Positions 21,998 to 48,256 of a DNA stretch of 64,000 bases are shown in pieces (position 1 is the first letter of the stretch; each line of letters starts with the position of its first letter). The notes beneath the pieces are model-generated. The model did not search any database. It saw only the letters and a list, made by a program, of their open reading frames with translations, and was not told where the DNA came from. This stretch comes from Epithemia pelagica (lineage: Eukaryota; Protista; Bacillariophyta). Both the position numbers and the translations under genes were made by a program. Location: assembly GCA_946965045.2 (NCBI GenBank), contig OX337230.1, forward strand, positions 372,001 through 436,000. Reading direction: 5' to 3'.

Positions 21998-24361
21998 TCA
22001 CGGAGTGGGTACACCGGCCGACGATAGGGTACAGGAAAAGAGTCCAAAAAAGGCAATGCCCAAAAAGGTTCCCATCATATCTCCGACATTGCCCGCCAAG
22101 AGACCAGGAACTTGAAGGGACTTCCACGAATTGGATTGGGCCAAGGCCACCGCCGTGGCGGGCCCCCCAATGGCGGCCGACGAGGCAATCAACAATCGGG
22201 GGACCGCCATGCTTCGTTTGTGGGGAAAGACGCGTCGGAGTGCCAACAACCAGGTGCCATGCAAAACGTACAAAATACCCAAAAAGGCTCCTAGAGGAAT
22301 CATGGACGATTTGAGCGTGGACACGGCGCGACCGCCTTGAGCTCCCAGTGTGGAAAAGAAAATGTGCAAGGCGACCGTGCCCAGCATTTGGGCCGTGGGT
22401 TGAATCGAGGCAATCCATCGATTGGCGGCGGGTAACCACCGAGGCGCTCCAAAGAACCAGGACGGAGCACTGTCCATGGTCACCACCTTGATCAACAAGA
22501 CCGACAAGAGTGTACACACGGGCAAGGCGGCACGCGCTCCTCCCACGAGTTGACTCAACCAAACCAAAATGGAAGCGGTAAACAACACATACATCATGCG
22601 GTCGACCGTCACAGAACTGTCTTGTCCTGTTACCACCGCCTCGTTTGGCTGAGTAGAGGATGACAACGACGAGTCCGAAACAACGGGTGAGGCCGTTCCA
22701 TTGGCACCCCTTTCGTTTTCCGAATGCGAATTGTGATGGTTCCGTCGTGTCATTTTTACCTTGGCAATTTTGCCATGACCATTCAGACTCTTGGTAGTTC
22801 GACCATTGACACGTCCATTCATCTTGGACGAAAGGTGGTGATGACGGGTCTTGCTTTTCAAGTTGCTGCTGGATTCTCCCCCATTCTGTTCATGTCCGCC
22901 GCCGCCATGACGATGACCCTGCAAGGGTCGAGGAGGAGGATGAATGGGAGGATGATCCATGTCGGCCACTTCGTCTTGATTCAGAATCAGGACATCTGCA
23001 ATGGGGCCCACTTCTTCGGTCGAGGTTTCCGACAGAGACGCTTTCAACGGCAATGATCGTGATAGTTTCTGGGACAAGCGCGAGTTTAGCAGTTGTGGTT
23101 CTTCCATAGTGGTTCGAAAGGTGGAAGCCTCGCCAGGTTCCAATGTGAGTTCCAGGGTTTGTGCCAGGGGTTGGTGTCGTCGTTTTTCTTCTTGTTCTTG
23201 TCGTTCTTCTTGTTGTTCTTCAATGGCCGGATCGGGTCGTCCCATGGCCAGGTAGGAAATGATTGGAAAGTAGCAAAGTCCAAAGATGTTGTCGGCACAC
23301 ATGCCGGCCGTAATGGCCATGGGGGAGGCCTGCAGAGTGGTACACACGGCAATGTAATTCAATCCTCCCCCAATGTTGCGGGCCATGAGAGCGGCGACAA
23401 TTTTGAGAGCATCGTCGGCGCCCATGGCAGCCGTCAAGGCCGGTCGCAACAACCCATAGCCCATGATGCTGGCCACCAAGGTGGCACAGGCCGCCAAGGC
23501 AAACGACGTATACATGGGTTCGCGATTCGAACTCGTGTTCTTATTGCTATTCCGACTCTTGTTCCAAGGAAATCGTCGTCGTCGTCCTGGTTCGGATGGT
23601 GAGGAAGCGCTGGTGGTTGTTGCGTGCGTGGTGTGTGGTTCGTCTTCTTCTCGGGGCCGCCGCCGAAAGTCATTGGCCACGCCGAGCAAGACGAGGGGTG
23701 TGGCGAGATAGAGGGTCAAGGCTTGGAGGGACGCGGCGGCGGGACTTCCTCCACTCGGCAAAATGCCGACGGTGGCCATGAAAAAGGTCCAAAACATGGC
23801 CCCAATGGGCGGTCCCAACAATCGGCCAATGGCCGTCGTCTTGGTCATGTATTGGGCCAAGGCCGTGTTGAAAATGAGCATCATCCAATTGCCCCAGGCA
23901 TCGTCTGGGGCAATCACACTAAAGGGTATAAGGGATTCCGAGGAGGAAGAGGAGAATAAGGAGGAACCAGAAGAAGAGAATGATGATCTCGGACGAACCC
24001 GTCTTATGGCGGAACGTGCCAAGGGCATGGGCCTTGGAGTGCCGACGATCCCATTGTGTGCTGTCTCTTGTTCTTCATGATTCCTTGTGGAAAACGACAG
24101 GCCCGAGTCGCTCGGTCTGGGTGGTCTTGAGGTACGAAATCTGGGTGGCATGGCTGGACCGCGTCGAGCGTCACGTCCCAAAACACCATGATGCGATTGC
24201 GAGGACGCACCATCCCGAATGGATGGCCGATTCCCTACCACCAAACCACCTACTCGCAAAGAAGAAGAAGAAGAATAGGCGTCCACCTTGGACAGACTGA
24301 CCACACAGAGTGTCACCATGAGAATCCACCATGGACGACCGCTTCTTGGAAGAACATTCAT
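21998..24361 (-). CDS. DUF819-family membrane protein, second paralog
   Basis: Same motif set as 16659-18491 (WGNWM, LLGPPIGAM, AALMARNIGGGLNY, SSAAIGGPATA). Signal-like N-terminus ends VDA-Y. ATG at 24361. Confidence 0.8.
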   Translation of the reverse strand: MNVLPRSGRPWWILMVTLCVVSLSKVDAYSSSSSLRVGGLVVGNRPSIRDGASSQSHHGVLGRDARRGPAMPPRFRTSRPPRPSDSGLSFSTRNHEEQETAHNGIVGTPRPMPLARSAIRRVRPRSSFSSSGSSLFSSSSSESLIPFSVIAPDDAWGNWMMLIFNTALAQYMTKTTAIGRLLGPPIGAMFWTFFMATVGILPSGGSPAAASLQALTLYLATPLVLLGVANDFRRRPREEDEPHTTHATTTSASSPSEPGRRRRFPWNKSRNSNKNTSSNREPMYTSFALAACATLVASIMGYGLLRPALTAAMGADDALKIVAALMARNIGGGLNYIAVCTTLQASPMAITAGMCADNIFGLCYFPIISYLAMGRPDPAIEEQQEERQEQEEKRRHQPLAQTLELTLEPGEASTFRTTMEEPQLLNSRLSQKLSRSLPLKASLSETSTEEVGPIADVLILNQDEVADMDHPPIHPPPRPLQGHRHGGGGHEQNGGESSSNLKSKTRHHHLSSKMNGRVNGRTTKSLNGHGKIAKVKMTRRNHHNSHSENERGANGTASPVVSDSSLSSSTQPNEAVVTGQDSSVTVDRMMYVLFTASILVWLSQLVGGARAALPVCTLLSVLLIKVVTMDSAPSWFFGAPRWLPAANRWIASIQPTAQMLGTVALHIFFSTLGAQGGRAVSTLKSSMIPLGAFLGILYVLHGTWLLALRRVFPHKRSMAVPRLLIASSAAIGGPATAVALAQSNSWKSLQVPGLLAGNVGDMMGTFLGIAFFGLFSCTLSSAGVPTP

Positions 24362-25271
24362 GGCGACAACAACTACCATGATCCTTCAATCGCGACGAAA
24401 AGTGCTCCCCCAACAGAGATGAACAAAAAACAAAACCAAGTGTCTATATATCTCTACAATGGTGTCAGGGTCTGCCAACGAATTGCAGGTAGGACAGATG
24501 AAACAATTCGAAAGCAAGAGCCGCCCCCGTGGTCCAAGGATGAGGGAGATGGGTGAGAGTTCTGTCAGAGTTTTTCGCGTTCATCATCGATCCTCATTGA
24601 ACCTACGTCCAACGCACATCTATCCACGCTAGATAGACCGCATAGGTACGTATCCACTTGGGCGACGGGTAGCAGATGGGGCCTGCTTATCTGCGACTGG
24701 AGCTCGGAACCACCCCACACGTGGCAGTTCGGCTGCCCTCGTCACTCAGTTTCGACCAATCACATCACATGGATTAATCCACCGGTGGCCACGGTTCTGT
24801 CGCATCGAACGTGTCCGTTCGCCACCTCTGTCCTCTATGTTCTGCTCTTGTCGGAGCCGGGCGCCGGGCGTACGAAACGATTTTGACCGGGCGGTGCTTC
24901 CGATTCTATCTGGCTCGTGGTGTCATCGGGCCTTCTCATTTTCTCCCGCATCCAAAATCCAACAAATTCTCTTGTAACACCCGGTAGAAGCAAGTGCTTT
25001 ACCTTGCATCTCTCTAACAATATATCGAAAGGAGAGACTGCATGGTGAGATCCATGTCGTTCCTGATTAGTTTGGTTCGTGGGTTACGAAACGTTGGTAC
25101 AGCTACAACCTATGCATATACGAGACACAAGGAAACTAGCAGTAATACTTTAAGCGACATTGTTGATAGCGATCCTTCTTTGCCCATGACACCGAATCAC
25201 AACTGTAGTTCTTTTACATACACCCTTTGAGCACATCATTCTTCTTGGAACATGGAATCGTTCTTGTCTGT

Positions 25272-26883: not shown

Positions 26884-27641
26884 TGATAAACTTCTCTCGA
26901 TTCAACAGGGGTTAGACAGATAGGTAGGATAGGTAAAAGGCTCGCTGAGCCGACAATCGAATCACCAACCGATACAACAATCCTCCACGGGTCAGAGAAG
27001 AGTTGCAAGTCGAAGTCCGCCGTGGGTGGGGGCAGTCGGTCCACTGATAAGAGGTTAGTCTTAAGATGAGTGTTAAAATGGTGATATTAATGATTGTGAG
27101 ACGATTACTAACTAAGGTGGTTGATGGTGCCGAAGTCCTGGCTCTTGCATACGGCCATGGATCTGGTGTGATAGGTCCTCACTGGTTGGAGTAGACCGGC
27201 ATTGGTGTATATTGAATGTATAGGGTGATGGATAACATGTATGGGATGCAACAGCTCTTGCTTTGTCGTGGTATAAGTCTTGTCCTGGGCGCGTTGCTGT
27301 TTGCATTCTTGGATTTGTGGGAACAGAGATATGGTCTCGCGTGATCGTGATTCGTGCCTTGATTACATAGACCGTTAGGTCGAATCGTGGATGCGCGTAC
27401 TCGGATAGTAGAGGCGCGCACTTGATAGTTTTGGGCGCGCACGTGTTGGGCCATAGTTAATATCCGAGCGGTCGCCGATAACGCGTGCACTGCGAGCATG
27501 CCGTGGCCAAATTTATAGTTTCGCGAGCATGCCGACATTCTTTTCTCACTTTTAGGAAAATGTCATCGGATGCCATAGAAAACTAGCATCATTCGATGAG
27601 TTGTAGGTTTCGCCACCTAGTTTTCGGTGAGAATCCTAACA
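26884..27641 (-). repeat. 3' LTR of element A
   Basis: Matches 42377-43134 at constant offset 15493. Only two mismatches were seen by eye (TTTCGCCACC vs TTTGGCAACC). Confidence 0.97.
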
Positions 27642-29364
27642 CTCCCCACAATTCGTCGAATGAGGATTGTCAATTCCCTCATCACTTTCCTGGATTTTTC
27701 CTCTCCAGAATAACAAAGATCTGAGCATGGGCCAAACTGCGGCAAATTCCCAATGTTTACTGAGGATATCAGCTGGGTTTGTCTTTCCATCTTTCCAGTA
27801 GAATGCGACGTACTTTGCAGCGATAGCTTCACGGACTCGGTGATAGGATAGGAGATGGTGCCTCTTGGAGATGATTGAGTGTGGTGTGGTGCTATTGATA
27901 ACGACAGAGCGGTTATCCCCAAACATGTAACTCTTCTCTCGCAGAGGGACTCCCAAGTATCGGAGTGTAAGGCGTAGCTCCGTGATCTGATCAACTGCAG
28001 TCCTTGCGGCAACAAATTCAGATCCATACGCGGCTGTTTCCACTGTGGCTTGTCGCTTACTGTACCAGTCCACGGGTGTACCATTTACAAAATGCAGGAT
28101 AGCTGTAACTGCTTTCCCAGTAACCGTATCATGCATGAGATTTGCGTCGACATAATGTATAGTTGTCACAAAACGCCCAAGTGGGGTTGGGCAGTCCTCA
28201 GGGATACGTTCCTTGGCGTCCATGTATACGGTACGACTCCAATCGTATTCTTGGATAGGTAAAGCTGATAAATCTGGCTCCCCAGTGCGGAATCTGATAG
28301 ACCCATCAGGAAATGACATGAGGTATCCATAGATGCGTTTAGCTCGCTTCAAATGACCAATCCTTGGAGCAGCTCTGAACCTTGATAGAGTCATGGTAGC
28401 AGGAAAGACATCAAAACGGCCAATGGTAATTAGCCATTGCAGTTGTCCAATAAGAGTCTGGAAATGCTGGGTCCCTTCTTCATCTAAGAGCTCAGAGTCA
28501 TCGAGTTCAGGATGATCGTTAGCAATGACTGGCGGCTTTGCTTTCTTGGGTTTCTCATTGAACAATCGTTCATAGGTATCCATCATTTTCTCGATGTACC
28601 TTCGTGGGTCAGACACAAGTGTACCGTCTGGATCTTTGGTATAACGACACCCCAAATGATACTCGATAGGTCCGACTCCTTTGAGTTTGAAGTTGTATTT
28701 TTCTGTAAAGATCTTGCAGACAGCTTCAGGGTCCATGGCAACGATAGCTAAGTCATCAACATATACAGCGATATATTCATAACAGTCTTCTCCAGGAGCC
28801 TTCTTCATCCAAATATCAGGGTCAGCCTTGCTTGGAGAAAATCCCATATCAATGAGAACATCAAACAGTTTGTCATGCCAGCGAGCACCTGAGGATTTGA
28901 GACCATATAATGCCTTGTAGATGATCAAGATATGTCCTTCTAACTCCTTGAACTCTGGTCCTGCAATGATGAAAATCTTCTCTCCTGTCAATGCTTCTAG
29001 GTATGCGTTCCCAATATCTGCTCCCCATATTTCCATGTCGTTCATGGTTCCAAGAAATATGGCAATGCGAAGGTTGCGAATGGAGACAACCCCTGAATAG
29101 ATGGTCTCAACGGGTTCCTTGGTGAGATGTCCATCTGCGACAAGTCGTGCCTTGTGCCTTCCGTCATGCTTGACATCAAAGACCAGATGTACTCTTATCT
29201 TATGATATCCTTCTGGTGCATTGGCCAATTTTCCATTAATGAACTTGGCTTTTCCATGGTCCTTGAAAGTGTTATACGATTGGATCTGTGAGAGTTCCAA
29301 TTCTGTTGCGTCTTGCCATTTCGTGTTCCCAAATTGCTTGTCTAGTTCCACTGCTTCTTCATAG
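27636..29364 (-). pseudogene. RT-RNase H half of element A gag-pol
   Basis: ADIGNAYL, KALYGLKSSG, YVDDL, YVDANL, YGSEF and NPADILSK motifs. Ends CGEC-stop inside the LTR. Confidence 0.95.
27642..27650 (-). promoter_or_regulatory. Polypurine tract of element A (TGTGGGGAG)
   Basis: Abuts the TG start of the 3' LTR on the minus strand. Identical to the tract in element B. Confidence 0.8.
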
Positions 29365-29369
29365 GTGCG

Positions 29370-30152
29370 TGTTAGAATTCTCACCGTCTATGGTGGCTAG
29401 ATTCTACATCTCATCGATTCCCCATGTCACATAGCCTCGTGCTATCGCATCATGCCATCTAGCTTCGAGCTATGTTTCCTAGCTTCGCGCTATATCGACC
29501 TATATTTCTTCGCAAATCATGAAAAGTGAGAATAGATTGACGAACTCACTCTCAAGACTAAACTGGGTCGTGCGGTATTACAACGGACGTAAATTTGGCC
29601 GTTGCTCGGACATTATACTAACGCCCTAAGCGTACGCGCCCGAAATCATCGAGCGCGCCCAAGCGACATCCGAGCGCTATCGGAATCTATCCGACCCAAC
29701 GGTCTAAGTATCCCAAGCACGACACACGATCACGCGAGACCATATTTCCATTCCCACAATCTCCAAATTGTCAACAAGCTGCGCGCCATGAAAACAACTA
29801 TGCCAACCCAAAGCAAGAGCTGTTGACCCTGTATATGTTATCCGCCCACATATACATGTCATATACATCACATGAATCAACTCCAACTATTCCAAACCTG
29901 TTGCCGCCAAGAACCTATGACACATGACCCTTGGCAGGACCGAACATTTCACGTAGACCTATCGTAGTAATCAACACACAATCTAACAATATCACCATTT
30001 ATCACATCTTCTTTTGTGTCCCGACTATCCTTCTGATAGACTTCGACTTGCTTGCTTCTCTGACCCTGAGAAGCTTGTATCGGTTGGTGACCTACCTGAT
30101 TGTCTGCTCTACCGAGCATCAATGCCCCTACGATTCAGAAAGAATTGTAACA
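29370..30152 (+). repeat. 5' LTR of element B
   Basis: TGTTAGAATTCTCACC...AATTGTAACA. Matches 36533-37315 at offset 7163 with one mismatch seen (AGCTTCGCGC vs AGCTTTGCGC). Confidence 0.97.
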
Positions 30153-30166
30153 GATTAACAGTCTCA
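30153..30166 (+). promoter_or_regulatory. Primer-binding site of element B (complementary to tRNA-Asn positions 27-40)
   Basis: GATTAACAGTCTCA lies directly after the 5' LTR and is identical to plus-strand 7770-7783 within the tRNA-Asn gene. Confidence 0.85.
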
Positions 30167-30188
30167 AAGCTTATTTCCTTGTGGTTTC

Positions 30189-30530
30189 ATGGATACTAAC
30201 GAGATTATCACTCCTGTACGACAGATCTATCGAGCCAACCTGCATCCCGGGCAGCCCGATACCCTGGTGCAGCAGGAACTGGTGCCGACGCCGAAGGCAG
30301 CCAACACATCGGTCAACATCTCTGTACGCCTAGATAACTACGTTGCCTACATCCACGAGGTCCATACCATCGAGGACCATCGTGCAACTATCTACCCTTT
30401 GCGTACCGAGGTCGAGAACCACCTGGCTGAAGGTGATACCCCTTCTTCTGTTGCTTGTGCTGCCCCATCTGAGCCTGGAAGCGACTCTGATCATTCGGAA
30501 GAGGGTGAGGATTCGGAGACCGAAGCCTAA
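30189..30530 (+). CDS. Extra ORF (ORF0) upstream of gag in element B, 113 aa
   Basis: ATG-started and lies between PBS and gag. Shares the RLDxYVxxxHExHxxxDxRATIYPL...NHL motif with ORF0 of element A. Confidence 0.7.
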   Translation: MDTNEIITPVRQIYRANLHPGQPDTLVQQELVPTPKAANTSVNISVRLDNYVAYIHEVHTIEDHRATIYPLRTEVENHLAEGDTPSSVACAAPSEPGSDSDHSEEGEDSETEA

Positions 30531-30850
30531 TTACTCATAGTTAACTCCCGTCCTCTCAAAACCTTTCCAAGACTTAAACTCAACGCATATCCGGGTACCA
30601 TTGGTCGCACAACACGCCACACATTCCCGTCAAATCGCGAAAATTCGGCGAAAATTTGTTGAAACTCGGCGAAAATTTGTCGAAATCAACGGAAATTTCC
30701 AGGAGTCGCACATCACAACACACATCCGGGTATCACATACGTGGTACATACGTGGCACACGTGGTACATCCGGGTTCACATCACATCACACATTAAATAA
30801 ACCACATCACACCGCACATTAAATAAACATCGAACCAACCAAATAACACC

Positions 30851-33800
30851 ATGGATCCTCAATCACCCAAGACACCTACGACTCTTAAGGGAGAAGATAA
30901 CCAAGACAATGTCTCGGACACAGACCTATTCGACCACATCATATTTACTGTCTGCCAATTCTTCACCAAAGAAAGGGCCGACTACTTAATGAAGTGGATG
31001 AAATACCATGGTTTTGAGAACATTACCCATGATATCTCGTATATGCAAACTAATACCGAGGAATCCATGAAGGAACTGACACAATACAAGGTCAACAAAC
31101 AGACACATGATCTACAAGGCCCCACAAGACAGCAGATCAAGCTCTTGGCTTATTGGGCCACATACAAGACCAATGAAATTCAAGACGAGCTATCCAATAG
31201 CGACTGGATGAACCTAACGAGGAAAGAGTTCAACACTTGGAGGATCAACACAGATTTCTCTAAGGGACCACCTAGCCAAGTCCCAGTCTCGCCAATGAAG
31301 TCACCGTCATCTGTGAAATCTGTCAGCACAGTTACTGCCGCATCCCAATCTCAACAAGACCTTACAGCATTCAGAAAGGGAACTAAGCGTGACGCAACTG
31401 CATATGAGGTATTCAAGGATGAACGATACTACGATTCATTCTGGCGTGTATTCAAGACTACAGCTAAGGCTCAAGGCCTATCCAACGTTCTGAATTTCAA
31501 ATACACACCACCCCATGATGATGAGTATGCCGAAGAACTTTTTCAAGAGCAACAAGTATTTCTTTACTCCGTTCTTGTCCGTATCATTCAGACTGACCAA
31601 GGTCGAGCCTATGTACGTGAACATGAACATGATGAAGATGCGCGTGCCGTATTGCAGAAGTTACACTCTTTGCATACCGAATCCGACCTAGCAAAGCGAG
31701 AGGTCCTCCGCTTAACCAACTACATTTCCAATCTACGTCTTGACGACACATGGCGCGGAACAACACGTCAATTTCTTCTACACTTTCAAGAGCAGCTACG
31801 TTTGCTAGACAATTTAGTGACATTGTCTGATCGCATCCCTGATCATACCAGGATGACCTTCCTCATGCAAGCTGTAGAAAAGGTACCTGATCTCCGCCGA
31901 GTCAAGATCTTGGATAATGTGGTGAACACCAAATCCGGTGCAAAATCCCTTTGCTATCAATCATACTTCCGTCTCCTTCTAGACGCAGCTTATGACCATG
32001 ATCAAGCAACCCAGTCATCTGTTCATAGTCGCCGTCGACATGTCAAACAACATGAATCACTATATGGCCAAGATACAGATGCTGACATAACCTCACAAGA
32101 TGATATGGAGTATCATGTCCACAACACCAAAGCGACATCTGAATCTCCATCCTCTTCGTCCAAGGTTAGTCTACCGCGTGACCTATGGTTCAAACTTTCT
32201 GAAGAAGATCGCAAGTTGATCATTGAGTATAACAAGATGATTCAAGCACCTTCATCAACAACACCGAGGACAGTGCAAACACATGCCCTCGACATTGATC
32301 CGGAACCTGATCCTGACCCCAACCAAGTTGCATCTGATGACGACTCACCTGGCGTAGTCCCTGAGCATTCAGATGATTCAGATCCGGTTACACAATTTAT
32401 CAACCAAGCCATGACGACTGATATCAATCACCCGGCAACTGACCTGACTAGTGTTCTTTCTAACGCCAAGTCCAAGACGAGCAAGAAGGTTACTTTCAAA
32501 GCCAACATGCATAAACAAGCAGGACATGTTCCACGCTATTTGTTTTCCAGGAAATCTACTTTACCAGGGAATCAATTGATTGACCGTGGTGCTAATGGAG
32601 GACTTGCTGGTTCTGACATGCGCATCCTTTCTAAGACTGGCCGCCATATCACTATTGTGGGTATTGATAACCATGAACTTACTGGACTTCCTGTCGTCAC
32701 ATGTGCCGCAAAGTTTGAGACCAATGATGGACCTATTGTCGGCATCTTCAATGAATATGCTTATTATGGGAAGGGCTTATCTATCCATGCTCCTGGTCAA
32801 TTCGAGCATTTCGGACTTGCTGTTGATGAACGATCTCTTAAAGTTGATGGTAAACAACGCATCACTACACTTGATGGTCGTGCCATACCCCTTCACATCA
32901 AGGATGGGTTAGCCTACATCCACTCCTTGGGTATCCCCAGCGACGATGACATGGATACCTTACCTCAGATCATCTTCACGTCACCCGACACATGGGATCC
33001 TGGTGTTCTGGACCATTCGTATTCTCCCACACCCTCTGACAATGATCCTGATTGGAAACACGTCAACACTGATGGTAGTATGTCGAACCATCCATATGAC
33101 AACTATGGGGAGTACACTGATCGTGTTGTTTGTAACCTCAATCTCCTTTTGGATCTCCCATACGATCATGGACCTGACGACGCACCCTTCTTTTCTATCT
33201 ATGCTGACGCAGAAGGTAATGATCCTACACTTCATGCCTCTGTCCACCGTCGTTACCAGGAAGCGTATGACTGGAAGAAGTTCCGTCCATTCTTTGGTTG
33301 GCAATCTGAAGATGTTATTGCCGATACGTTCAAGCACACTACACGTAATGGTAGCATTACTTTTGACCACGACACCCTCAAGAAACATTTCAAGGCTCGC
33401 AATCCGGTCCTTAATATACCTCGACGCCATGAACCCGTTGCTACTGACTCGGTTTTCTCCGACACTCCTGCTGTTGACCATGGCGGTAAAGTCGCACAAA
33501 TCTTTGTTGGTCGAGATACTCTGGTTACTGATATCTATGGGATCAAGTCAACCAAACAGTTTGTCAATACTCTTCAGGACAACATCCGGTTTCGTGGTGC
33601 CATGGAGACTCTTATCAGTGATGGTGGTTCATCTCTCATCTCTCAAAAGGTTAAAGACATTCTTCGCACTTTGCTTATTGGGGAGTATCGATCCGAACCT
33701 TATCATCAACACCAGAATAAGGCTGAAAACCGTTACCAGACCGTTAAACGTATGACCAACGCTCTCATGAATGCCACTGGTTGCCCTGCCAACACCTGGC

Positions 33801-36538
33801 TTCTTTGCCTTGAGTATGTCTGTGACTTATTGAACCATACGTCATCACCCACCCACTCCGGTCGCACTCCTCTTGAGGCTCTCTCCGGACGCCCACCCGA
33901 CATTACTCATCTCTTGTTCTTTCCTTTCTGGGATGAGGTTTACTACCGTGTCGACCCCGCTGAACCCAATTCCGGTTCATATCCATCTTCTTCTGACGAG
34001 AAACTTGGCCACTGGGTTGGTTTTGCTCACAACGTTGGTGATTCTTTTACTTGGAAGATTCTCACCCAGGATAACCAGATCATCTACCGTTCTGCCGTTC
34101 GCCGTGTTGAATCCACTACACCTAACCTACGTGTGGATCGACCTTCAGGGGAGGATTCGTTTGAGAAGGATGACAATGATAAGCAAGCTGACACTGTCTT
34201 CATTCGCAGTGATAGTGAAGATCCATCCAAACCAATGCCCACGATCGATTTTGACGACATGATAGGACGCACATTCCTATGCGACACAGAAGAAAATGGG
34301 GAGCGACACCGTGCACGTGTCATCAAACGAGTCATTGATCTTAATGAAGAAGCAACGAAACAGGAAGAACGTGTCAAGTACATCTACCGAAAGACAAATT
34401 CTGATGTTGATGAGATGATATCCTATAATCAACTCATGGAGTATATCGAACGAGATAACCAAGCTCAAACCTCTGGAGATAATCTTTTCAGGTTCAGGGA
34501 CGTCATTGCCCATCAAGGCCCACTGAACACAACTGATCCAGATTACAAGGGGAGCAAATATAATTTGCTTGTTGATTGGGAAACTGGGGAGACTACCTAT
34601 GAACCTTTATCACTCATCGCCAATGATGATCCGATCACTGTAGCAATTTATGGAAAGAAACATGATTTACTCAACGAACCTGGATGGAAGCATTTGAAAC
34701 GTTATGTCAAAACAAGCAAACGTCTCATTCGAGCAGCCAAACAGTCAAGGATTAAACAAGTTCACCATTCCGTCAAGTATAAGTTTGGATTCCAAGTACC
34801 ACGCAATTATGAGGAAGCTGTCGCTCTTGATAAACAACATGGCAACACAAAGTGGCAGGATGCAACAGAATTAGAATTGTCACAGATCCAGTCCTACAAG
34901 ACATTCAAGGATTTTGGGAAAGCCATCTTCATTAAAGGGAAAGTATCCAATGCACCTGAAGGATATCATAAGATACGTGTACATCTTGTCTTTGACGTAA
35001 AACATGATGGACGACATAAAGCAAGACTTGTCGCAGATGGACATCTCACGAAAGAACCTGTTGAGACAATCTATTCAGGTGTTGTTTCCATTCGCAACCT
35101 CCGCATTGCCTTATTCCTGGGTACTTTGAATGACTTGGAAATATGGGGAGCAGATATTGGAAATGCATATCTGGAAGCCTTGACAGGGGAGAAAATTTTC
35201 ATTGTCGCAGGACCTGAATTCAAGGAATTAGAAGGTCACATCCTGATTATATACAAGGCACTTTATGGATTGAAGTCATCAGGCGCACGCTGGCATGATG
35301 TCTTATTCGATGTTTTGACAGACATGGGATTTTCACCAAGCAAAGCAGATCTGGATATCTGGATGAGGAAAGCACCTGGAGAAGACTGTTACGAATACAT
35401 TGCCGTATACGTTGATGACTTAGCCATTATTTCTACTGATCCTGGGAATATCTGCAAGATCCTAAAGGAGAAATACAACTTCAAACTCAAAGGAGATGGA
35501 CCTATTGATTTCCATTTGGGATGTTGTTACACCAAGGATTCTGATGGAACATTAGTAGCAGATCCAAGACGCTACATTGGTAAGATGATGGACACTTTCG
35601 AACGAATCTTCAAGGAGAAACCCAAGAAAGCCAAAACACCTCTTATTGGTGGAGACCATCCTGAATTGGATGATTCTGAGCTCCTTGATGAAGAAGGTAC
35701 TAGCCATTTCCAAACTCTGATTGGACAACTCCAATGGGTGATCACTATTGGTCGTTTCGACGTCTTCACCGCTACAATGACGCTATCACGCTTTCGCGCT
35801 GCTCCGAGGAAAGGACATCTTGATAGAGCCAAGCGTATCTATGGATACCTTGCACATCTCCCAGAAGGCGCAATCAGATTTAGGATTGGAGAGCCTGATT
35901 ATTCAAGTCTTCCTACCCAAGAATTTGATTGGACTCGCACTGTCTATTCGAATGCAAGTGAACGTATTCCTGAAGACTGCCCAACACCTCTTGGCCGCTA
36001 TGTTACCACAACTCATTATGTTGATGCCAATCTCATGCATGACATAGTCACTGGTAAATCCGTCACTGCTGTTCTACATTTGTTGAACGGAACACCTATT
36101 GACTGGTACAGCAAGAGACAGAGCACGGTGGAAACTGCTACCTATGGATCCGAGTTTGTGGCTGCAAGGACAGCAATAGATCAGATTACAGAATTACGAC
36201 ATTCTCTCCGCTACCTTGGAGTACCTATCCGAGAGCAAAGTTACATGTACGGAGATAACAGATCCGTTGTGCTCAATGCAACCGTTCCTCATTCCATACT
36301 ATCCAAGAGACACCATCTTCTGTCATACCACCGAGTTCGTGAAGCCATCGCAGCAAAGTATGTTGCATTCTACTGGAAAGATGGAAAGACCAACCCTGCC
36401 GATATCCTTAGCAAACATTGGGATTTCGTATCTATTTGGCCCATGCTCAAGCCATTGCTGTTTTGGAAAGGAGAAGTTCAAGATCTCAACAAATCCAATG
36501 ATGACAAGGCTGAAACGACGAGCTGTGGGGAGTGTTAG
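30851..36538 (+). CDS. Gag-Pol polyprotein of element B (gag, protease, integrase, RT, RNase H)
   Basis: Protease LIDRGANGG; integrase VATDSVF / LISDGG / KAENRY; RT ADIGNAYL and YVDDL; RNase H YVDANL, TYGSEF and NPADILSK. Confidence 0.97.
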   Translation: MDPQSPKTPTTLKGEDNQDNVSDTDLFDHIIFTVCQFFTKERADYLMKWMKYHGFENITHDISYMQTNTEESMKELTQYKVNKQTHDLQGPTRQQIKLLAYWATYKTNEIQDELSNSDWMNLTRKEFNTWRINTDFSKGPPSQVPVSPMKSPSSVKSVSTVTAASQSQQDLTAFRKGTKRDATAYEVFKDERYYDSFWRVFKTTAKAQGLSNVLNFKYTPPHDDEYAEELFQEQQVFLYSVLVRIIQTDQGRAYVREHEHDEDARAVLQKLHSLHTESDLAKREVLRLTNYISNLRLDDTWRGTTRQFLLHFQEQLRLLDNLVTLSDRIPDHTRMTFLMQAVEKVPDLRRVKILDNVVNTKSGAKSLCYQSYFRLLLDAAYDHDQATQSSVHSRRRHVKQHESLYGQDTDADITSQDDMEYHVHNTKATSESPSSSSKVSLPRDLWFKLSEEDRKLIIEYNKMIQAPSSTTPRTVQTHALDIDPEPDPDPNQVASDDDSPGVVPEHSDDSDPVTQFINQAMTTDINHPATDLTSVLSNAKSKTSKKVTFKANMHKQAGHVPRYLFSRKSTLPGNQLIDRGANGGLAGSDMRILSKTGRHITIVGIDNHELTGLPVVTCAAKFETNDGPIVGIFNEYAYYGKGLSIHAPGQFEHFGLAVDERSLKVDGKQRITTLDGRAIPLHIKDGLAYIHSLGIPSDDDMDTLPQIIFTSPDTWDPGVLDHSYSPTPSDNDPDWKHVNTDGSMSNHPYDNYGEYTDRVVCNLNLLLDLPYDHGPDDAPFFSIYADAEGNDPTLHASVHRRYQEAYDWKKFRPFFGWQSEDVIADTFKHTTRNGSITFDHDTLKKHFKARNPVLNIPRRHEPVATDSVFSDTPAVDHGGKVAQIFVGRDTLVTDIYGIKSTKQFVNTLQDNIRFRGAMETLISDGGSSLISQKVKDILRTLLIGEYRSEPYHQHQNKAENRYQTVKRMTNALMNATGCPANTWLLCLEYVCDLLNHTSSPTHSGRTPLEALSGRPPDITHLLFFPFWDEVYYRVDPAEPNSGSYPSSSDEKLGHWVGFAHNVGDSFTWKILTQDNQIIYRSAVRRVESTTPNLRVDRPSGEDSFEKDDNDKQADTVFIRSDSEDPSKPMPTIDFDDMIGRTFLCDTEENGERHRARVIKRVIDLNEEATKQEERVKYIYRKTNSDVDEMISYNQLMEYIERDNQAQTSGDNLFRFRDVIAHQGPLNTTDPDYKGSKYNLLVDWETGETTYEPLSLIANDDPITVAIYGKKHDLLNEPGWKHLKRYVKTSKRLIRAAKQSRIKQVHHSVKYKFGFQVPRNYEEAVALDKQHGNTKWQDATELELSQIQSYKTFKDFGKAIFIKGKVSNAPEGYHKIRVHLVFDVKHDGRHKARLVADGHLTKEPVETIYSGVVSIRNLRIALFLGTLNDLEIWGADIGNAYLEALTGEKIFIVAGPEFKELEGHILIIYKALYGLKSSGARWHDVLFDVLTDMGFSPSKADLDIWMRKAPGEDCYEYIAVYVDDLAIISTDPGNICKILKEKYNFKLKGDGPIDFHLGCCYTKDSDGTLVADPRRYIGKMMDTFERIFKEKPKKAKTPLIGGDHPELDDSELLDEEGTSHFQTLIGQLQWVITIGRFDVFTATMTLSRFRAAPRKGHLDRAKRIYGYLAHLPEGAIRFRIGEPDYSSLPTQEFDWTRTVYSNASERIPEDCPTPLGRYVTTTHYVDANLMHDIVTGKSVTAVLHLLNGTPIDWYSKRQSTVETATYGSEFVAARTAIDQITELRHSLRYLGVPIREQSYMYGDNRSVVLNATVPHSILSKRHHLLSYHRVREAIAAKYVAFYWKDGKTNPADILSKHWDFVSIWPMLKPLLFWKGEVQDLNKSNDDKAETTSCGEC
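36524..36532 (+). promoter_or_regulatory. Polypurine tract of element B (TGTGGGGAG)
   Basis: Immediately upstream of the 3' LTR start at 36533. Confidence 0.8.
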
Positions 36539-37315
36539 AATTCTCACCGTCTATGGTGGCTAGATTCTACATCTCATCGATTCCCCATGTCACATAGCCT
36601 CGTGCTATCGCATCATGCCATCTAGCTTCGAGCTATGTTTCCTAGCTTTGCGCTATATCGACCTATATTTCTTCGCAAATCATGAAAAGTGAGAATAGAT
36701 TGACGAACTCACTCTCAAGACTAAACTGGGTCGTGCGGTATTACAACGGACGTAAATTTGGCCGTTGCTCGGACATTATACTAACGCCCTAAGCGTACGC
36801 GCCCGAAATCATCGAGCGCGCCCAAGCGACATCCGAGCGCTATCGGAATCTATCCGACCCAACGGTCTAAGTATCCCAAGCACGACACACGATCACGCGA
36901 GACCATATTTCCATTCCCACAATCTCCAAATTGTCAACAAGCTGCGCGCCATGAAAACAACTATGCCAACCCAAAGCAAGAGCTGTTGACCCTGTATATG
37001 TTATCCGCCCACATATACATGTCATATACATCACATGAATCAACTCCAACTATTCCAAACCTGTTGCCGCCAAGAACCTATGACACATGACCCTTGGCAG
37101 GACCGAACATTTCACGTAGACCTATCGTAGTAATCAACACACAATCTAACAATATCACCATTTATCACATCTTCTTTTGTGTCCCGACTATCCTTCTGAT
37201 AGACTTCGACTTGCTTGCTTCTCTGACCCTGAGAAGCTTGTATCGGTTGGTGACCTACCTGATTGTCTGCTCTACCGAGCATCAATGCCCCTACGATTCA
37301 GAAAGAATTGTAACA
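36533..37315 (+). repeat. 3' LTR of element B
   Basis: Near-identical to 29370-30152 and followed by TSD GTGCG. Confidence 0.97.
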
Positions 37316-40300
37316 GTGCGAGGTACTTGGAAACCAAACTTGTACTTGATAGAGCGACGAACTTGTTTGATCCTGGATTGTTTAGCTGCTCGAATGAGTC
37401 TTTTGCTTGTCTTGACGTATCGCTTGAGATGTTTCCATCCAGGTAGATCCAGCAAACCATTTTTCTTGGCATAGATGGCGACTGTGATGGGGTCATCATT
37501 TGCAATAAGAGATAGAGGTTCGTATGTCGTCTCCCCAGTCTCCCAATCAACAAGGACATTATATTTACTCCCTTTATAGTCTGGGTCGCTTGAGTTCAAA
37601 GGTCCTTGGTGTGCAATAACGTCTCTGAATCGGAAGAGACTATCCCCTGTCGTTTGGGCTTGATTATCCCTTTCAATGTATTCCATGAGCTGGTTGTAGG
37701 AGATCATCTCATCAACATTGGAGTTAGACTTGCGAAAGATATATTTGAGTCGATCTTCTTGTTTGGTTGCATCTTGTTCCAGGTCGACAACTCGTTTGAT
37801 TACTCGTGCTCGGTGGCGCTCCCCATTCTCTTCAGTGTCACAAAGGAATGTGCGTCCAACTAAATCGTCGTAGTCAATTGTTGGCATAGGTGTGGATGGG
37901 TCTTCACTTCTGCTGCGAATAAAGACAGTGTCACCTTGCTTGTCAGTGGGTTTATGCGGCGACTCCTCCCCTGAAGAGATATCCACACGAAGGTTGGGGG
38001 TAGTGGAGGCAACGCGACGGACAGCGGAACGGTAGATGATGACGTTGTCGGCAGTGAGGATCTTCCAAGTAAAGGCATCACCAACATTGTGGGCAAAACC
38101 AACCCAGTGGCCAATCTTCTCGTCGGGAGACGAAGGGTAAGAACCGGAGGTAGGTTCAGAAGGGTCGACACGATAGTAGACCTCATCCCAGAAAGGAAAG
38201 AAAAGGAGATGGGTAATGTCGGGTGGGGTACCGGTAAGAGCCTCAAGAGGGGTGCGGCCAGAGTGGGTGGGAGAGGAAGTGTGATTGAGGAGGTCACACA
38301 CATATTCTAAACAAAGTAACCATGCAGAAGCAGGGCAACCAGAGGCATTCATGATAGCATTGGTCATACGCTTAACGGTCTGGTAGCGGTTCTCAGCTTT
38401 GTTCTGGTGTTGATGATAGGGCTCGGAACGGTATTCACCAATCAGAAGGGTGCGAAGAATATCCTTGACCTTGTGGGAAATAAGTGACGAACCACCATCA
38501 CTGATCAAAGTCTCCATGACACCACGTGTACGAATGTTATCCTGGAGGGTATTGACAAATTGCTTGGTAGACTTGATACCATAAATGTCAGTAACCAAAG
38601 TATCACGACCAACAAAAATCTGAGCAATCTTGCCACCATGGTTAACAGCCGGGGTGTCGGAGAAGATGGAGTCAGTGGCAACGGGTTCATGCCGTCGTGG
38701 TAGGTTAAGGATAGGATTCCGGGCCTTAAAGTGTTTCTTCAAGGTATCCTGGTCAAAGGAAATGTGTCCATGACGAGTTGTATGCTTGAACGTATCGGCG
38801 ATTACGTCTTCCGATTGCCACCCAAAGAAAGGGCGAAATTTCTTCCAGTCGTATTGTTCCTTGTAGAGTTTGTGGACAGACGCATGAAGTGTGGGGTCGT
38901 TGCCATCTTGATCAGCATAGATGGAAAAGAAGGAAGGTGTATCGGGGCCATGATCATATGGGAGATCAAGGAGGAGATTCAAAGTGCATACAATGCGATC
39001 GGTATACTCCCCATATTGGTCATAGGGGTACGTTTCCATACTACCATCAGTCTCCACAGATGTCCAGTTCGGTGCAGGGTCTTGATGGGGGTCTGGATGG
39101 GTATGGTCAAGTACAGAAGGATCCCAGATATGGGGTGAAGTGAACACAATATGCGGATATTTATCCATATCGTCATCAGAAGGGATTCCCAGAGATTGAA
39201 TGTATGCGAGGCCATCCTTGATTCGTAAGGGCAATGCACGTCCATCAAGGGTAGTAATGCGTTGTTTGCCATCAACCTTGACGGATCGTTCGTCGACAGA
39301 TAGGCCGAAATGTTCAAATTGCGCTGGGGCATGGATAGATAAACCCTTTCCATAATGGGCATACTCATTGAAGATACCAATAATGGGTCCATCACTTGTA
39401 TCAAACTTGGCAGCACAGGTAACAACTGGAAGGCCAGTCAATTCATGATTGTCAATACCTACGATGGTAATATGACGTCCGGTTTTGGCAAGGATACGCA
39501 TGTCAGATCCTGCAAGGCCTCCATTGGCACCTCGATCGATGAGTTGATTACCAGAAAAGGTGGATTTGCGGGAGAATAGATATCGTGACATATGAACCTT
39601 TTGCTTGTGATCGGCAGAAGACTTGAACTTGACTTTAGGACTTGACTTTGTCGTAGAAGTTGACAAGATGTTGCTGAGGTCAGATGCTGGATGATTGATA
39701 TCTGTCGATGCAATAGCCTGGTGTACAAACTGGGTAACCGGATCAGAGGATGTATCGAATGGATCTTGTTCTGGTGCATCTTGATGGGTATCACCAATGT
39801 TGTTGGCATCAGGATCAGGGTCCGGTTCAGGATCAATGTCAAGAGAATGTGTTTGGACCTTGCATGGAGTTGTCGGGGAATCTTGGACGGATTTATTGAA
39901 GTCGACAATGATTTGCCGATCCTCTTCAGAGAGTTTAAACCATACATCTCTTGGAAGGCTGATTTTTGACGAAGTTGGGGACTTTTCGGATTGGATATTC
40001 GTGTTGTTGATCTGGTAGTCAGGAGGCTCCACTGGTTCAAAAGGTTCATCCGACTGAAATTCATGTTGCTTTACATGACGACGGCGGTTAGACGCAGAAG
40101 TTCGGGTAGCTTGGTCATGGTCAAAAGCAGCATCAAGAAGCAGGCGGAAATATGATTGATAACAGAGAGACTTGGCTCCAGATTTTGTGTTGACAACGTT
40201 ATCCAAGATCTTGACTCGTCTTAAATCAGGTACCTTTTCAACAGCTTGCATAAGGAAGGTCATCCTTGTATGGTCATGGATACGATCCGACAGTGGTACA

Positions 40301-41268
40301 AGGTTATCCAGAAGTCGTAGCTGTTCTTGAAAATGTAGGAGAAACTGACGAGTTGTACCACGCCAAGAGTCATCCAGTCGAAGATTCGAAATGTAGCTTG
40401 TTAGGCGTAACACTTCTCGCTTAGCTAGATCAGATTCAGTGTGTAGAACATGGAGTTTCTTCAAGACGGCTCTTGCATCTTCATCGTGTTCATGTTCTCG
40501 AACATATGCTCTTCCTTGGTTGGTTTGGATAATACGTACAAGTACAGAATAGACAAAGACTTGTTGTTCTCGGAAAAGTAACTCTGCGCATTCGTCATCC
40601 TTGGGTACCTTGTAATCGAAATCAAGAACATTCGACAATCCTTGTGCTTTCGCAGTTGATTTGAATACACGCCAAAACGAATCAAAATATCGTTCGTCTT
40701 TGAATGATTCAAATGCTGTTGCATCTCTTTTGGTTCCTTTCTTGAAAGCAGAGAGATCTAACATGGATTGAGATGTTGTAGAGGATGTAGTGGGAGATCG
40801 GGATGATACGGAGTGTGCAGGTGATTTCAGAGGAGAAACTGGGTCTTGGTTCATACCAGACTTGGTAAAGTCGGTGTTGATCCTCCAATCGTCATATTGG
40901 TCCCTCGTGAGGTTCATCCATGTAGCACGGGGTAGTTTTCCATGTTGGAGTTGCCGTTGTTGTAGTAACCAATATGCCATTAGTTTGAGTTGTAATCTTG
41001 TACTTGTCTGTAGGTTGTTGACTTGTTTTCCAACCTTGTATTGCATGAGATCCTTGAGTGTCTCCTCGGGATCAGTTGCAACATGGTCGAGGACATGAAG
41101 GATATGTTCAAAACCATGATGTCGCATCCACTTTTGAAGTGATTGGGCTCGTTCATCATTACAACCAAAGATGCCTTTAGTTATATGGTCGAAGAGATCT
41201 TGATTGGTTATATGACTTGACTTGTCCTCAGAAGGAGTAAACGGTGTCTTGGGTGATTGAGGATCCAT
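37316..41268 (-). pseudogene. Gag-protease-integrase half of element A gag-pol
   Basis: Runs MDPQSPKTP...LIDRGANGG...LISDGG...KYKFGFQVPRT. Joining it to 29364-27636 gives 5682 bp, i.e. 1894 codons in frame (QVPRT|YEEAV). Confidence 0.95.
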
Positions 41269-41582
41269 GGTGTTATTTGGTTGGTTCGATGTTTATTTAA
41301 TGTGCGGTGTGATGTGGTTTATTTAATGTGTGATGTGATGTGAACCCGGATGTACCACGTGTGCCACGTATGTACCACGTATATGATACCCGGATGTGTG
41401 TTGTGATGTGCGACTCCTGGAAATTTCCGTTGATTCCGACAAATTTTCGCCGAGTTTCAACAAATTTTCGCCGAATTTTCGCGATTTGACGGGAATGTGT
41501 GGCGTGTTGTGCGACCAAGGCTACCCGGATGTGCGGAACTCGGTCTTGTGTCTGGTTTGGTGTAGAAACTACGTAAAGTTAC

Positions 41583-42338
41583 TTATTCTTGGTCACTTTC
41601 GGCTCGGTACTGAAGACGAGATGCGGAATCGGTCACTGTAGTGGCTAGTTCTTCAACGTCGTCGTCTTCCAACAAGTGGTTCACGTGTTGAGTGAAGAGA
41701 GGGTAGATAGTCGCACGGAAATCCTGGCAGAGATGGATCTCGTGAACAAAGGAGACGTACTCGTCGAGACGAGTAGTCGGGGTAGGTAACGGATTCGACG
41801 TCGAGTTGACGATCCAGATGGTGTGGAAGTAGTTGGTTGGACGTTCAAAGGAGATGAACCGAATACGGATGGGTTCCACAGGGTTGCCCAACAGGGCTTG
41901 GACAATGAAACGGCGTCTCGAGCACTGGTTCAAGAGGTCGAGAAGTCGTTGGATGTCCTCAAGGTCAGTCACGGGTTGGACGGACTGGAAATCGATCTCG
42001 CGTTCGGTTGTGGAACGGATCACGTCGGGGTCGGTAGTCGACTCAGTCGGCTCGCGGAAGTGTCGGATATGCGCAGTAAGAAGACGGCTCGTACGTCGGG
42101 TGCGAGTAGGGTTCAAACGGCGAGGCGGAGTCGAAGGTTGAGTCGGGATCGAAGGAGGCTGGACCACTTGGTCCGGGGTCTGGAAGGGATTCGGAGCACT
42201 GGCCTGAGTCGGGGTCGGTTTCGGAGTTTCAATCAAGGGCTCGCCCGGATGGGCCACGGGTGGATGGAGTTCCTCCCCGCTTTGTTGGAAGGAATGAAAG
42301 ATGTGTCGAATAGAGAGGTTGGAATCGTCGTGAGACAT
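41583..42338 (-). CDS. Extra ORF (ORF0) upstream of gag in element A, 251 aa
   Basis: ATG at 42338, just past the PBS. Pro/Thr-rich middle, then RLDEYVSFVHEIHLCQDFRATIYPLFTQHVNHL, homologous to ORF0 of B. Confidence 0.72.
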   Translation of the reverse strand: MSHDDSNLSIRHIFHSFQQSGEELHPPVAHPGEPLIETPKPTPTQASAPNPFQTPDQVVQPPSIPTQPSTPPRRLNPTRTRRTSRLLTAHIRHFREPTESTTDPDVIRSTTEREIDFQSVQPVTDLEDIQRLLDLLNQCSRRRFIVQALLGNPVEPIRIRFISFERPTNYFHTIWIVNSTSNPLPTPTTRLDEYVSFVHEIHLCQDFRATIYPLFTQHVNHLLEDDDVEELATTVTDSASRLQYRAESDQE

Positions 42339-42362: not shown

Positions 42363-42376
42363 TGAGACTGTTAATC
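42363..42376 (-). promoter_or_regulatory. Primer-binding site of element A (tRNA-Asn anticodon arm)
   Basis: Plus strand TGAGACTGTTAATC, i.e. GATTAACAGTCTCA in element sense, abutting the 5' LTR end at 42377. Confidence 0.85.
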
Positions 42377-43134
42377 TGATAAACTTCTCTCGATTCAACA
42401 GGGGTTAGACAGATAGGTAGGATAGGTAAAAGGCTCGCTGAGCCGACAATCGAATCACCAACCGATACAACAATCCTCCACGGGTCAGAGAAGAGTTGCA
42501 AGTCGAAGTCCGCCGTGGGTGGGGGCAGTCGGTCCACTGATAAGAGGTTAGTCTTAAGATGAGTGTTAAAATGGTGATATTAATGATTGTGAGACGATTA
42601 CTAACTAAGGTGGTTGATGGTGCCGAAGTCCTGGCTCTTGCATACGGCCATGGATCTGGTGTGATAGGTCCTCACTGGTTGGAGTAGACCGGCATTGGTG
42701 TATATTGAATGTATAGGGTGATGGATAACATGTATGGGATGCAACAGCTCTTGCTTTGTCGTGGTATAAGTCTTGTCCTGGGCGCGTTGCTGTTTGCATT
42801 CTTGGATTTGTGGGAACAGAGATATGGTCTCGCGTGATCGTGATTCGTGCCTTGATTACATAGACCGTTAGGTCGAATCGTGGATGCGCGTACTCGGATA
42901 GTAGAGGCGCGCACTTGATAGTTTTGGGCGCGCACGTGTTGGGCCATAGTTAATATCCGAGCGGTCGCCGATAACGCGTGCACTGCGAGCATGCCGTGGC
43001 CAAATTTATAGTTTCGCGAGCATGCCGACATTCTTTTCTCACTTTTAGGAAAATGTCATCGGATGCCATAGAAAACTAGCATCATTCGATGAGTTGTAGG
43101 TTTGGCAACCTAGTTTTCGGTGAGAATCCTAACA
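42377..43134 (-). repeat. 5' LTR of element A
   Basis: Near-identical to 26884-27641 and followed by TSD GGAGT. Confidence 0.97.
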
Positions 43135-46289: not shown

Positions 46290-48256
46290 TCAACCTTCCA
46301 CAACTTCTTCCTCTTGTTCTTCTTCTTCGTCGTCAAGGTCGTAGTCGGCATCGGCAAATCTCAACGAATGTTGGGCGGCACGCTTCTTGTCGACCCAGGC
46401 CTTGATTTCAAAGTCATCACCGTCCAACAAGTTCAATTCCCAGCCCTCAAAGAATCGGGGCAAAAAGAACAAACGGCCGGGGATACACAACAAGGTCATG
46501 AGGGGAAAGATAATGGAAATGGCCGACAAGTTCTGCACCAAAAAGACCAAGCCGAAAAAGAACAATTGAAGGACAGTGTACAAGTGAACCTTGCGCTTTT
46601 CAATAAATTGGTTAAAGACAGTGTCTGGGTACAGGCTTGGTTGTTGGAACCACAACAAGATTCGGTTCCAGAATTGCATGGCCGGCAAAGCGGAAAGACC
46701 CATAAACAAAAACACACCGTACAAGACTGGCAAGGGCAACAACTGGAGCAACTCCAAGACCAACAAGGAAAGACCAACCATCAAGTGGGAAAAGAAAAGA
46801 GTCAAACGAGTTTCTTGCACATCAATAATGTTGCCATCCTTGTCCTTGTCGGCCAAACTGTTGAGATGGATAGTGCAAGGAACCGTGGTGGCGACTTTCA
46901 TGGAAGACCAAGGATACCATTGACAAAGTTGAACATTCCGTTCAGGCACAAATCATAGTTGTACGCTTCCCCATGCTTGAGCTTGTGGTTGGGGTGGTTG
47001 ATCAAATGCCATGTGATACCGTTGTCAAGGAAGCAAAGCAAGAAGGCAAGGACGGCAGGTCCAGCAGCGACAATGGGCACCCATCCCTTTCCTCGCAAGT
47101 CGGAAAAGTCGACGAACCAGTCACGAGTTCCAGCGGCTTCGGCTTGATCCGGACAGTCATCAGGGAAGAAGGTTTTGCAAGTGCTGTCACAGCACTTGAA
47201 CGAAGGTTCAAACTTGTCAGGAACGTCCAATTGTTCAGTCTCAATGTCGGTGAACAAGAACTCCTTGATGGCAGTGGCAATCAACACAGACATGGTGACG
47301 GCAAAGTCATGAATGGAACTGCGGATGCCATCGTTGCAGAAAAAGGCAGTGTTCCTGAAGCCTCGGAACAAAAAGATCAAGGCTGTGGTTCTGAAGCCAA
47401 GAATGGTACTCAACAAGGCAACTTCCATGTAGTCGTAGTCCGGATCGTCTTCAAAGTCTTCATGCGAAGGGTGATTCGGGTCAAAGTATCGAAGGATACC
47501 GACATCCGAGAACGGATCACCAACAGCGTCAAACACAAAGATTGTCACAATCAAAAAGGCAAAAATCTCATCGGTGAATCGAGTGGCCAACCGGACGACA
47601 CGAGTCAAGTCGAAAAAGGCGGCAGTCACACAGTAGAACAACAACCAGCATGAAATCCAGGCATTGAAAGTCAAGAAAGGAACGCCAATATTGTCGGAGA
47701 TTCGGACGACGGCCTTGGTGAAAGCAAGAACTGGACCAGTGGAACCAATAACGCACTATAAAAAGGTGAAAACCATCAACGTGTAAGCTACCTGTGCACA
47801 AGCAGTGTATGTACTGCTCAGACGCAGAAAAGAAGCTCTTCTCCCTCTCATGTTTACAAGGCCCATTGGACTTACCAGAGGCATACCACCAATAAGGGCA
47901 TAGCACACACCGACCCAAGCCGTGGCCAAAATGGTCTCGACGGCTCCGATTTGGTTGTTTGTTTCTTTACCGTACACAGCTCCAAAGGTCAACGTGGGTG
48001 CAATGACGGAAATAAAGATCAAGAGTGTCACGGCTACAGTCTTTTGGTTAAAGTTGGTGAATTCAGTCACCCAGTGCGTTCCGACAGTGCGCTTGATGTC
48101 GCCAATAATACCAACTCCCCATGGTTGGCCTTCATCCGTGTGAACTTTTCCGGCATCCGGAACGAGCTCGGAGTTGGTCAATTGCGAGGCACGAAAGTTG
48201 CCCTTTCTATCATCGACCTCATCGACAATCTCTTCGTCTTGGTTGCGCGGAGCCAT
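46290..48256 (-). pseudogene. SLC4/Band-3-family bicarbonate transporter, copy 1, with stop plus frameshift at 46896-46900
   Basis: Exon 1 is 48256-47876 and the intron is 47875-47756 (GTAAG...TATAG). Motifs IAPTLTFGAVYG, IGSTGPVLAF, FTDEIFA, FLDNGIT, QETRLT, PVLYGVFLFMG. Reads CCA TGA AA GTC where the paralog has CCC TGG TTG GTG. Confidence 0.9.

Follow-up and report, generated by a model that had tools for sequence, protein, structure and literature searches.

An accessory gene ahead of gag in two nested diatom copia elements, and an AUG-free leader that points to leaky scanning

LTR retrotransposons are usually thought to translate gag first. Extra ORFs are common in plant LTR elements; in copia (SIRE) they mostly follow pol, in gypsy Ogre they precede gag, and 582 plant copia elements carried one in some position (Neumann 2019, PMC6317226; Vicient and Casacuberta 2020, PMC7264820; PMC2533021). 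An 'ORF1' upstream of the polyprotein was searched for and tabulated in diatom elements by Maumus et al. (2009, PMC2806351). Plant viruses offer models for the expression of such 5' genes. ORFs I, II and III of rice tungro bacilliform virus (RTBV) are translated by leaky scanning, whose signature spans about 900 nt (Firth and Brierley 2012, PMC3542737; Pooggin and Ryabova 2018, PMC5902531). Sobemovirus P1 starts at a weak first AUG and suppresses silencing (Ling et al. 2013, PMC3791421), and polerovirus P0/P1 is entered as leaky scanning in Table 1 of PMC3542737. Transposable elements of P. tricornutum are themselves targets of small RNAs and methylation (PMC4247016). Here, we show that two copia elements of a diatom do carry an accessory gene ahead of gag, which belongs to a new family confined to one lineage and is present in one of the two as a deleted copy.

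The window, a stretch of 64,000 nucleotides from Epithemia pelagica, carries two young copia elements, of which B (forward strand) sits within the pol of A (reverse strand; Table 1). The features that define Ty1/copia elements are present, namely paired TG...CA LTRs, a target duplication (GTGCG, 5 bp, at 29365-29369 and 37316-37320 for B; ACTCC for A), a primer binding site (PBS) and a purine tract. The polyprotein of B has an rve match at residues 899-952 (E 0.0012, below the curated cut-off) ahead of RVT_2 at 1365-1584 (E 2e-25). The reading frame of pol extends into the 3' LTR of both A and B, its stop codon falling among the initial six bases (36533-36538 in B, 27636-27641 in A), and the purine tract is thus coding. 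Among the host genes of the window are DUF6824 and bicarbonate transporter genes (Pfam), in keeping with a diatom host, the latter as a tandem of HCO3_cotransp genes at 46345-48265 and 49987-51873 that are 83% identical. DUF819 genes also stand in tandem (16659-18491 and 21998-24379), and a 781-bp direct repeat (4331-5111 and 5210-5990, 96% identical) lies within a 596-aa ORF at 4207-5997.

Table 1. Coordinates of the two nested copia elements and of their leaders within the window
Feature	Position	Strand	Remarks
5' LTR of B	29370..30152	+	783 bp, TG...CA; 1 mismatch vs 3' LTR
Weak-context AUG in B LTR (-3 T, +4 C)	30122..30199	+	25-codon frame ending just past ORF0 start; no A counterpart
PBS of B	30153..30166	+	14 nt, GATTAACAGTCTCA, same letters in A
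ORF0 of B	30189..30530	+	113 aa, internally deleted; joint 30322/30323; weak AUG context (-3 T)
ATG-free stretch, ORF0 start to gag start, B	30192..30850	+	659 nt; 0 ATG vs 9.9 expected
Spacer and first gag codons, B	30584..30877	+	98% identical to A (288/294)
gag-pol of B	30851..36538	+	intact, 1895 aa; start in ACCATGG; integrase precedes RT; stop codon inside 3' LTR
3' LTR of B	36533..37315	+	short purine tract just before
5' LTR of A	42377..43134	-	758 bp; 2 mismatches vs 26884-27641
PBS of A	42363..42376	-	14 nt, GATTAACAGTCTCA
ORF0 of A	41583..42338	-	undeleted, 251 aa; AUG in weak context (-3 T, +4 T)
ATG-free stretch, ORF0 start to gag start, A	41269..42335	-	1067 nt; 0 ATG vs 8.3 expected
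Conserved spacer, A	41242..41535	-	
gag-pol of A, 5' part	37316..41268	-	broken by B insertion
pol of A, 3' part (RT, RNase H)	27636..29369	-	
3' LTR of A	26884..27641	-	

We take A and B to resemble the CoDi (copia of diatoms) elements. A scan with the integrase gave 18 metagenome loci at 35-58% identity, and the integrase tree was limited to A, B and 14 metagenome loci. A segment 3' of the integrase core (34481-34705, residues 1211-1285 of B) is conserved in nine loci (47-64%). It may be chromodomain-like, but has no chromodomain match in Pfam or PDB; Llorens reportedly described in 2009 a chromodomain at the integrase C-terminus as the mark of CoDi clade A. The PBS of A, B, L001, L004, L005, L011, L012 and L013 is other than the usual TGG type, and its first 10 letters adjoin an LTR-like end in 6 of the 18 loci. 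Its reverse complement, CT-GTT-AA, resembles the anticodon loop of tRNA-Asn, a likeness which would mean half-tRNA priming. CpG is maintained in the LTR and leader (29370-30850; 1.0-1.3) and lower in gag-pol (30851-36532; 0.72-0.76), a contrast that is extreme in L011 (1.16 vs 0.13 in gag-pol) and missing in L005.

The preliminary description of this locus had reported an ATG-started sense ORF before gag in both elements, and this is what we find. The ORF, hereafter ORF0, begins shortly after the identical PBS, at a distance of 22 nt in B and of 24 nt in A, and ends about 315-320 nt short of gag; the shared motifs quoted at the time are there, and BLASTP of the pair gives 22/39 identities (E 3e-14). 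The difference in length between A and B is no trait of the two families: the B copy is a damaged form of a 259-codon gene. It consists of residues 1-46 and 193-259 of P0042 (259 aa, from a cluster of 145 sequences), with 146 codons lost in frame. Contig 22 of run X3 (6513 nt, from another study) has 438 extra letters, i.e. 146 codons, between 30322 and 30323, and runs on from the PBS via the spacer into gag; loose ends also occur at this joint in contigs of runs X1 and X6. The exact 113-aa form occurs in a single contig of the protein collection. Among the 15 members listed of the 145 in the B family, 8 have 259 aa and five are shorter calls of 80-210 aa. The A family comprises 39 sequences, with 251 aa in 13 of the 15 members listed, and a third family, P0007 (259 aa, 15 members), has this length in 12 of 15. 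For P0007, represented by protein sequences alone, we infer a link to a gag-pol. The sources of the contigs include marine sediment, biofilm or seawater metagenome runs.

The full-length proteins align end to end at 43-60% identity. Over the whole length A is 45% and P0007 43% identical to P0042, and P0007 is 59% identical to A. The conserved region covers about 180 residues, with 75 of 182 positions (47-228) invariant over the three families. Invariant positions number 9/46 in the N-terminus, 13/33 in a Pro-rich linker (NPF, T/S-P-P-R), 45/113 in the part deleted from B, 17/36 in the motif originally singled out as a special core and 2/31 in the acidic tail. The motif thus loses its special status, since the deleted part is about equally conserved. 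The stop-free frame of ORF0 in A (263 codons) was matched by 3 of 500 shuffles.

That the protein of this copia-tied ORF is under constraint, as proposed from the first inspection, is borne out by the nearly fixed length of the three families and by substitution rates. In the shared 36-codon core, A vs B gives dN 0.35 and dS 1.34 (pN 0.28, pS 0.63), i.e. a dN/dS of ~0.26, a value from a single pair, from codons picked as alignable and with dS close to saturation. The pN/pS of the core, 0.45 (bootstrap 0.26-0.77), is near that of the gag N-terminus (0.43), the gag core and integrase having 0.11 and 0.13. Differences among copies of the same family do not clearly show purifying selection. They amount to 6 nonsynonymous and 1 synonymous among the B copies in the rows listed, where the acidic tail accounts for five of these changes, and to 7 of each kind among the A copies, with 8 of the 14 from one diverged contig.

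Several functional hints can be drawn from the protein itself. The idea that a His/Glu core, HE(V/I)H, binds metal finds little backing, as the third family has HVIK and there is no conserved Cys; H93, H202, D209, H224 and E227 are common to the three families, although P0043 has R in place of H202. Five arginines (R76, R82, R84, R85 and R88) are invariant, and residues 76-105 of P0042 have a net charge of +7. ORF0 has no hydrophobic segment (top 19-residue hydropathy 0.89-0.97) and its profile is that predicted of a soluble protein. We rejected its classification as an env-like extra ORF: it lies 5' rather than between pol and the 3' LTR, and has no transmembrane-like segment. The proteins of A, P0042 and P0007 have 1-3 Lys against 20-23 Arg in 251-259 aa, Lys making up 6.4% of gag-pol. 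A role in the ubiquitin system (PMC10169902) was considered for this scarcity and set aside; it is mostly a matter of base composition (4.6-6.2 Lys expected, p ~0.06), and we do not take it as evidence.

Searches placed ORF0 in its own three families only. When 1.84 billion representatives were searched with a four-sequence profile, each of the 5 hits belonged to one of these families, and word-index searches returned close relatives only (4/4, 3/400 and 2/43 candidates). No Pfam match came near the cut-off, including the plant mobile, Athila ORF-1 and Transposase_28 domains; a PDB sequence search gave nothing below E 3, and 19 fetched loci had no match to ORF0 at E 0.01. JGI metagenomes and IMG/VR had no ORF0 locus, and IMG/VR no relative of gag or integrase. 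A single hit, L019, came from a prokaryote genome; it matched integrase weakly and we disregarded it. AlphaFold2 models were unusable, with a mean pLDDT of 40.5 from the single sequence and 38.9 from 35 rows of low diversity, and Foldseek on these models, uninformative at such pLDDT, had no match at E 0.001.

The preliminary description saw ORF0 before gag, which stands, and overlooked the total lack of other AUGs, which points to the mode of expression. Between the starts of ORF0 and gag there is no ATG in any frame in either element, and none of 500 dinucleotide shuffles, from which the expected numbers in Table 1 derive, was as low. The same strands hold 25 (A) and 24 (B) CAT in these stretches. 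The resulting gaps of 1070 nt (A) and 662 nt (B) are the longest on their strands of the window, where the next measure 393 and 410 nt. Within ORF0, all 13 codons for His, Asp, Asn or Tyr that precede a G end in C, the corresponding figure for gag-pol being 44 of 210 (Fisher p 6e-9). No internal Met occurs in 41 of 43 stored ORF0 proteins of at least 200 aa, which represent three families and not 43 independent cases. The ATG deficit is weaker when ORF0's own codon usage is taken into account (p 0.014 for A, 0.20 for the deleted B). The ATG-poor zone opens inside the LTR, at 229 nt upstream of the PBS in B and 267 nt in A; in B it holds one further, weak AUG, at 30122. As to the starts, the ORF0 AUG has a T at -3 in both elements and the gag AUG stands in ACCATGG, while 8 of 10 long host ORFs (starts unverified) have a purine at -3. 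The features of an RTBV-type arrangement, i.e. a weak first start, no further AUG and a strong downstream start, are thus all present.

The related loci suggest that this is not a peculiarity of ORF0. A PBS is visible in 6 of the 18; in five of these the start of gag can be seen as well, and each of the five leaders is ATG-free. They measure 1382 nt in L005 (13.9 ATG expected), 1739 nt in L011 (12.4 expected), 514 nt in L001 (5.6 expected; read over the contig's terminal overlap), and 169 and 82 nt in L004 and L013, which are too short to tell. In L012, whose gag start is outside view, 10 ATGs occur in the 524 nt past the PBS. The ATG-free zone of L005 (112-1744, 1632 nt) has no stop-free frame above 85 codons. 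That of L011 (1946 nt) contains a Pro/Arg-rich ORF of 310 codons without Met (1486-2415), for which 0 of 500 shuffles gave an equal length, codon choice is 11:0 and Pfam has no match. This ORF, which does not align with ORF0 (probability 0.5%), is a candidate non-AUG accessory gene. The ATG purge is thus wider than ORF0. Its occurrence in L005 without a long ORF tells of a selective pressure to let ribosomes scan as far as gag and is no proof that ORF0 is translated. What argues for translation is the one AUG retained between PBS and gag, which in both A and B opens a long conserved frame.

We infer that the loss of AUGs within ORF0 is required by leaky scanning and not by reinitiation, an IRES or splicing. 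One full-length RNA started in the LTR would carry both ORF0 and gag-pol; few ribosomes would start at the weak ORF0 AUG, and most would scan some 1.1 kb without meeting another AUG until the strong one of gag-pol. Judged from the letters of the leader, ribosomes probably do scan past ORF0 to gag, and the protein would quite probably be made, as a soluble product of low abundance. Taken together, a family-wide gene of about 250-260 codons, leaky-scanned ahead of gag-pol, is the best overall explanation, to which we give a probability of roughly 0.65. In open papers, the scope of our literature search (subscription papers, theses and Repbase/GyDB lay outside it), we found no report of leaky scanning or of an AUG-free leader in a copia element.

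The role of the protein is a more tentative matter. An unrelated ORF occupies the slot of ORF0 in L011, and slot turnover between lineages is typical of conflict genes. Among possible functions we rank first, as a weak suggestion from analogy, that ORF0 may be a trans-acting counter-defence protein damping host silencing by RNA or methylation. This ranking follows from the position and start design shared with P1, the turnover of the slot, the young and numerous families, the targeting of P. tricornutum transposable elements by small RNAs and methylation, and the CpG pattern. The conserved Arg-rich segment may in this case bind nucleic acid or serve nuclear entry. One might speculate further that the AUG-purged leader of 1-2 kb is the exchangeable accessory slot of a virus-like bicistronic scheme in an algal copia lineage, filled by ORF0 or by the L011 ORF and empty in L005, and that ORF0 is a counter-defence protein of new fold behind the burst of its families; this broader scenario is rather doubtful.

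The spacer before gag invites other readings. Together with the first gag codons it is 288/294 identical between A and B, against 40-64% in its flanks, its folding z is -2.1, and Rfam had no match over 29300-31000. It might be a cis-element or a recently exchanged tract. ORF0, expressed as proposed above, could handle the element's RNA (export, dimerisation, packaging), for instance as a protein that binds these 294 nt. The spacer itself, the invariant Arg-rich segment with its net charge and a Gag without CCHC knuckle would fit such a role. Yet the knuckle is missing in most CoDi groups anyway, 113-162 nt of the spacer are missing from X1 and X2 contigs that belong to other families, a recent A-B recombination could equally account for its identity, and the short-leader elements L004 and L013 encode gag-pol without ORF0. 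We hold RNA handling to be rather unlikely.

The same spacer, near-invariant, modestly structured and directly 5' of gag, might instead allow gag-pol to be made through internal ribosome entry, an internal promoter or splicing, with ORF0 as a normal first ORF; a pyrimidine-preceded CAG at ~30700 could act as acceptor. But there would then be no need to purge out-of-frame ATGs inside ORF0, which were purged nonetheless (13:0), and the weak context of ORF0 would be left without explanation. Moreover, in each of A, B, L005 and L011 the ATG-free zone starts ~210-270 nt upstream of the PBS, at the place where one would look for a transcript start. We consider this route to gag-pol unlikely.

The weak AUG before gag in both families would also suit a translational attenuator, which matters by diverting some ribosomes from gag-pol and whose protein itself does little. 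The B copy seems to say as much, being young and intact in gag-pol, with 1 LTR mismatch, and yet short of 146 codons in frame; the mainly nonsynonymous changes among B copies point the same way. A short uORF would however suffice for attenuation, the deleted form is restricted to one contig, and the 75 invariant positions persist across the three families even with synonymous sites close to saturation. Such a role is improbable. Finally, it is very unlikely that ORF0 is untranslated and its similarity the product of common descent and RNA-level constraint, since third codon positions of the core are indeed little less identical (0.56) than first ones (0.61) but second positions are the most conserved (0.75), pN/pS is below 1, the single AUG kept in the leader opens a long frame in both elements and this frame withstands indels between families.

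Leaky scanning past a family-wide ORF0 remains our preferred reading, and its consequences would reach beyond this locus. If it is true, copia elements converged on a plant-virus way of adding 5' genes, and hidden accessory genes of algal genomes can be sought simply by their long ATG-free leaders. Should ORF0 also act against silencing, a transposon would here supply a probe of the small-RNA and methylation pathways of diatoms.

The architecture itself had been thought undescribed, and it is not, as an upstream ORF1 was already listed by Maumus et al. (2009, PMC2806351). In the available text of that paper, CoDi elements share with A and B the copia domain order, the lack of CCHC in Gag and an ORF that follows the 5' LTR and precedes the polyprotein ORF, and no function, conservation or translation mechanism is stated for ORF1. 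ORF0 and ORF1 are alike in position; no ORF1-like protein from that survey was among the profile hits from the 1.84 billion representatives. The available portions of PMC8147415, PMC2774666 and bioRxiv 10.1101/2025.10.24.684338 make no mention of such an upstream ORF in CoDi elements. Hence, the layout is not new, and the new point here is the AUG-free stretch from ORF0 to gag. The extra ORFs of plant elements resemble ORF0 in being lineage-restricted, fast-diverging, at least 250 codons long and of function not known. Unlike the Ogre, Athila and Retand proteins, ORF0 has no plant mobile domain nor any other Pfam match.

For the mode of expression the closest likenesses are viral. RTBV shares with A and B a weak upstream start, an AUG-free stretch of ~0.9-1.1 kb and a strong start for a capsid/RT polyprotein. 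It differs in being a plant pararetrovirus that relies on shunting and begins ORF I at AUU, and has no sequence relation to these elements; A and B have one AUG-started ORF in an LTR retrotransposon. Sobemovirus P1/P2a and polerovirus P0/P1 have, like ORF0, a 5'-proximal accessory ORF with a weak AUG before the replication polyprotein. They belong to plant RNA viruses, no homology to ORF0 was found, and P1 is a suppressor of silencing where ORF0 may be one. By analogy, the expression of ORF0 is likely to work as that of the 5' cistrons of RTBV or of the sobemoviruses.
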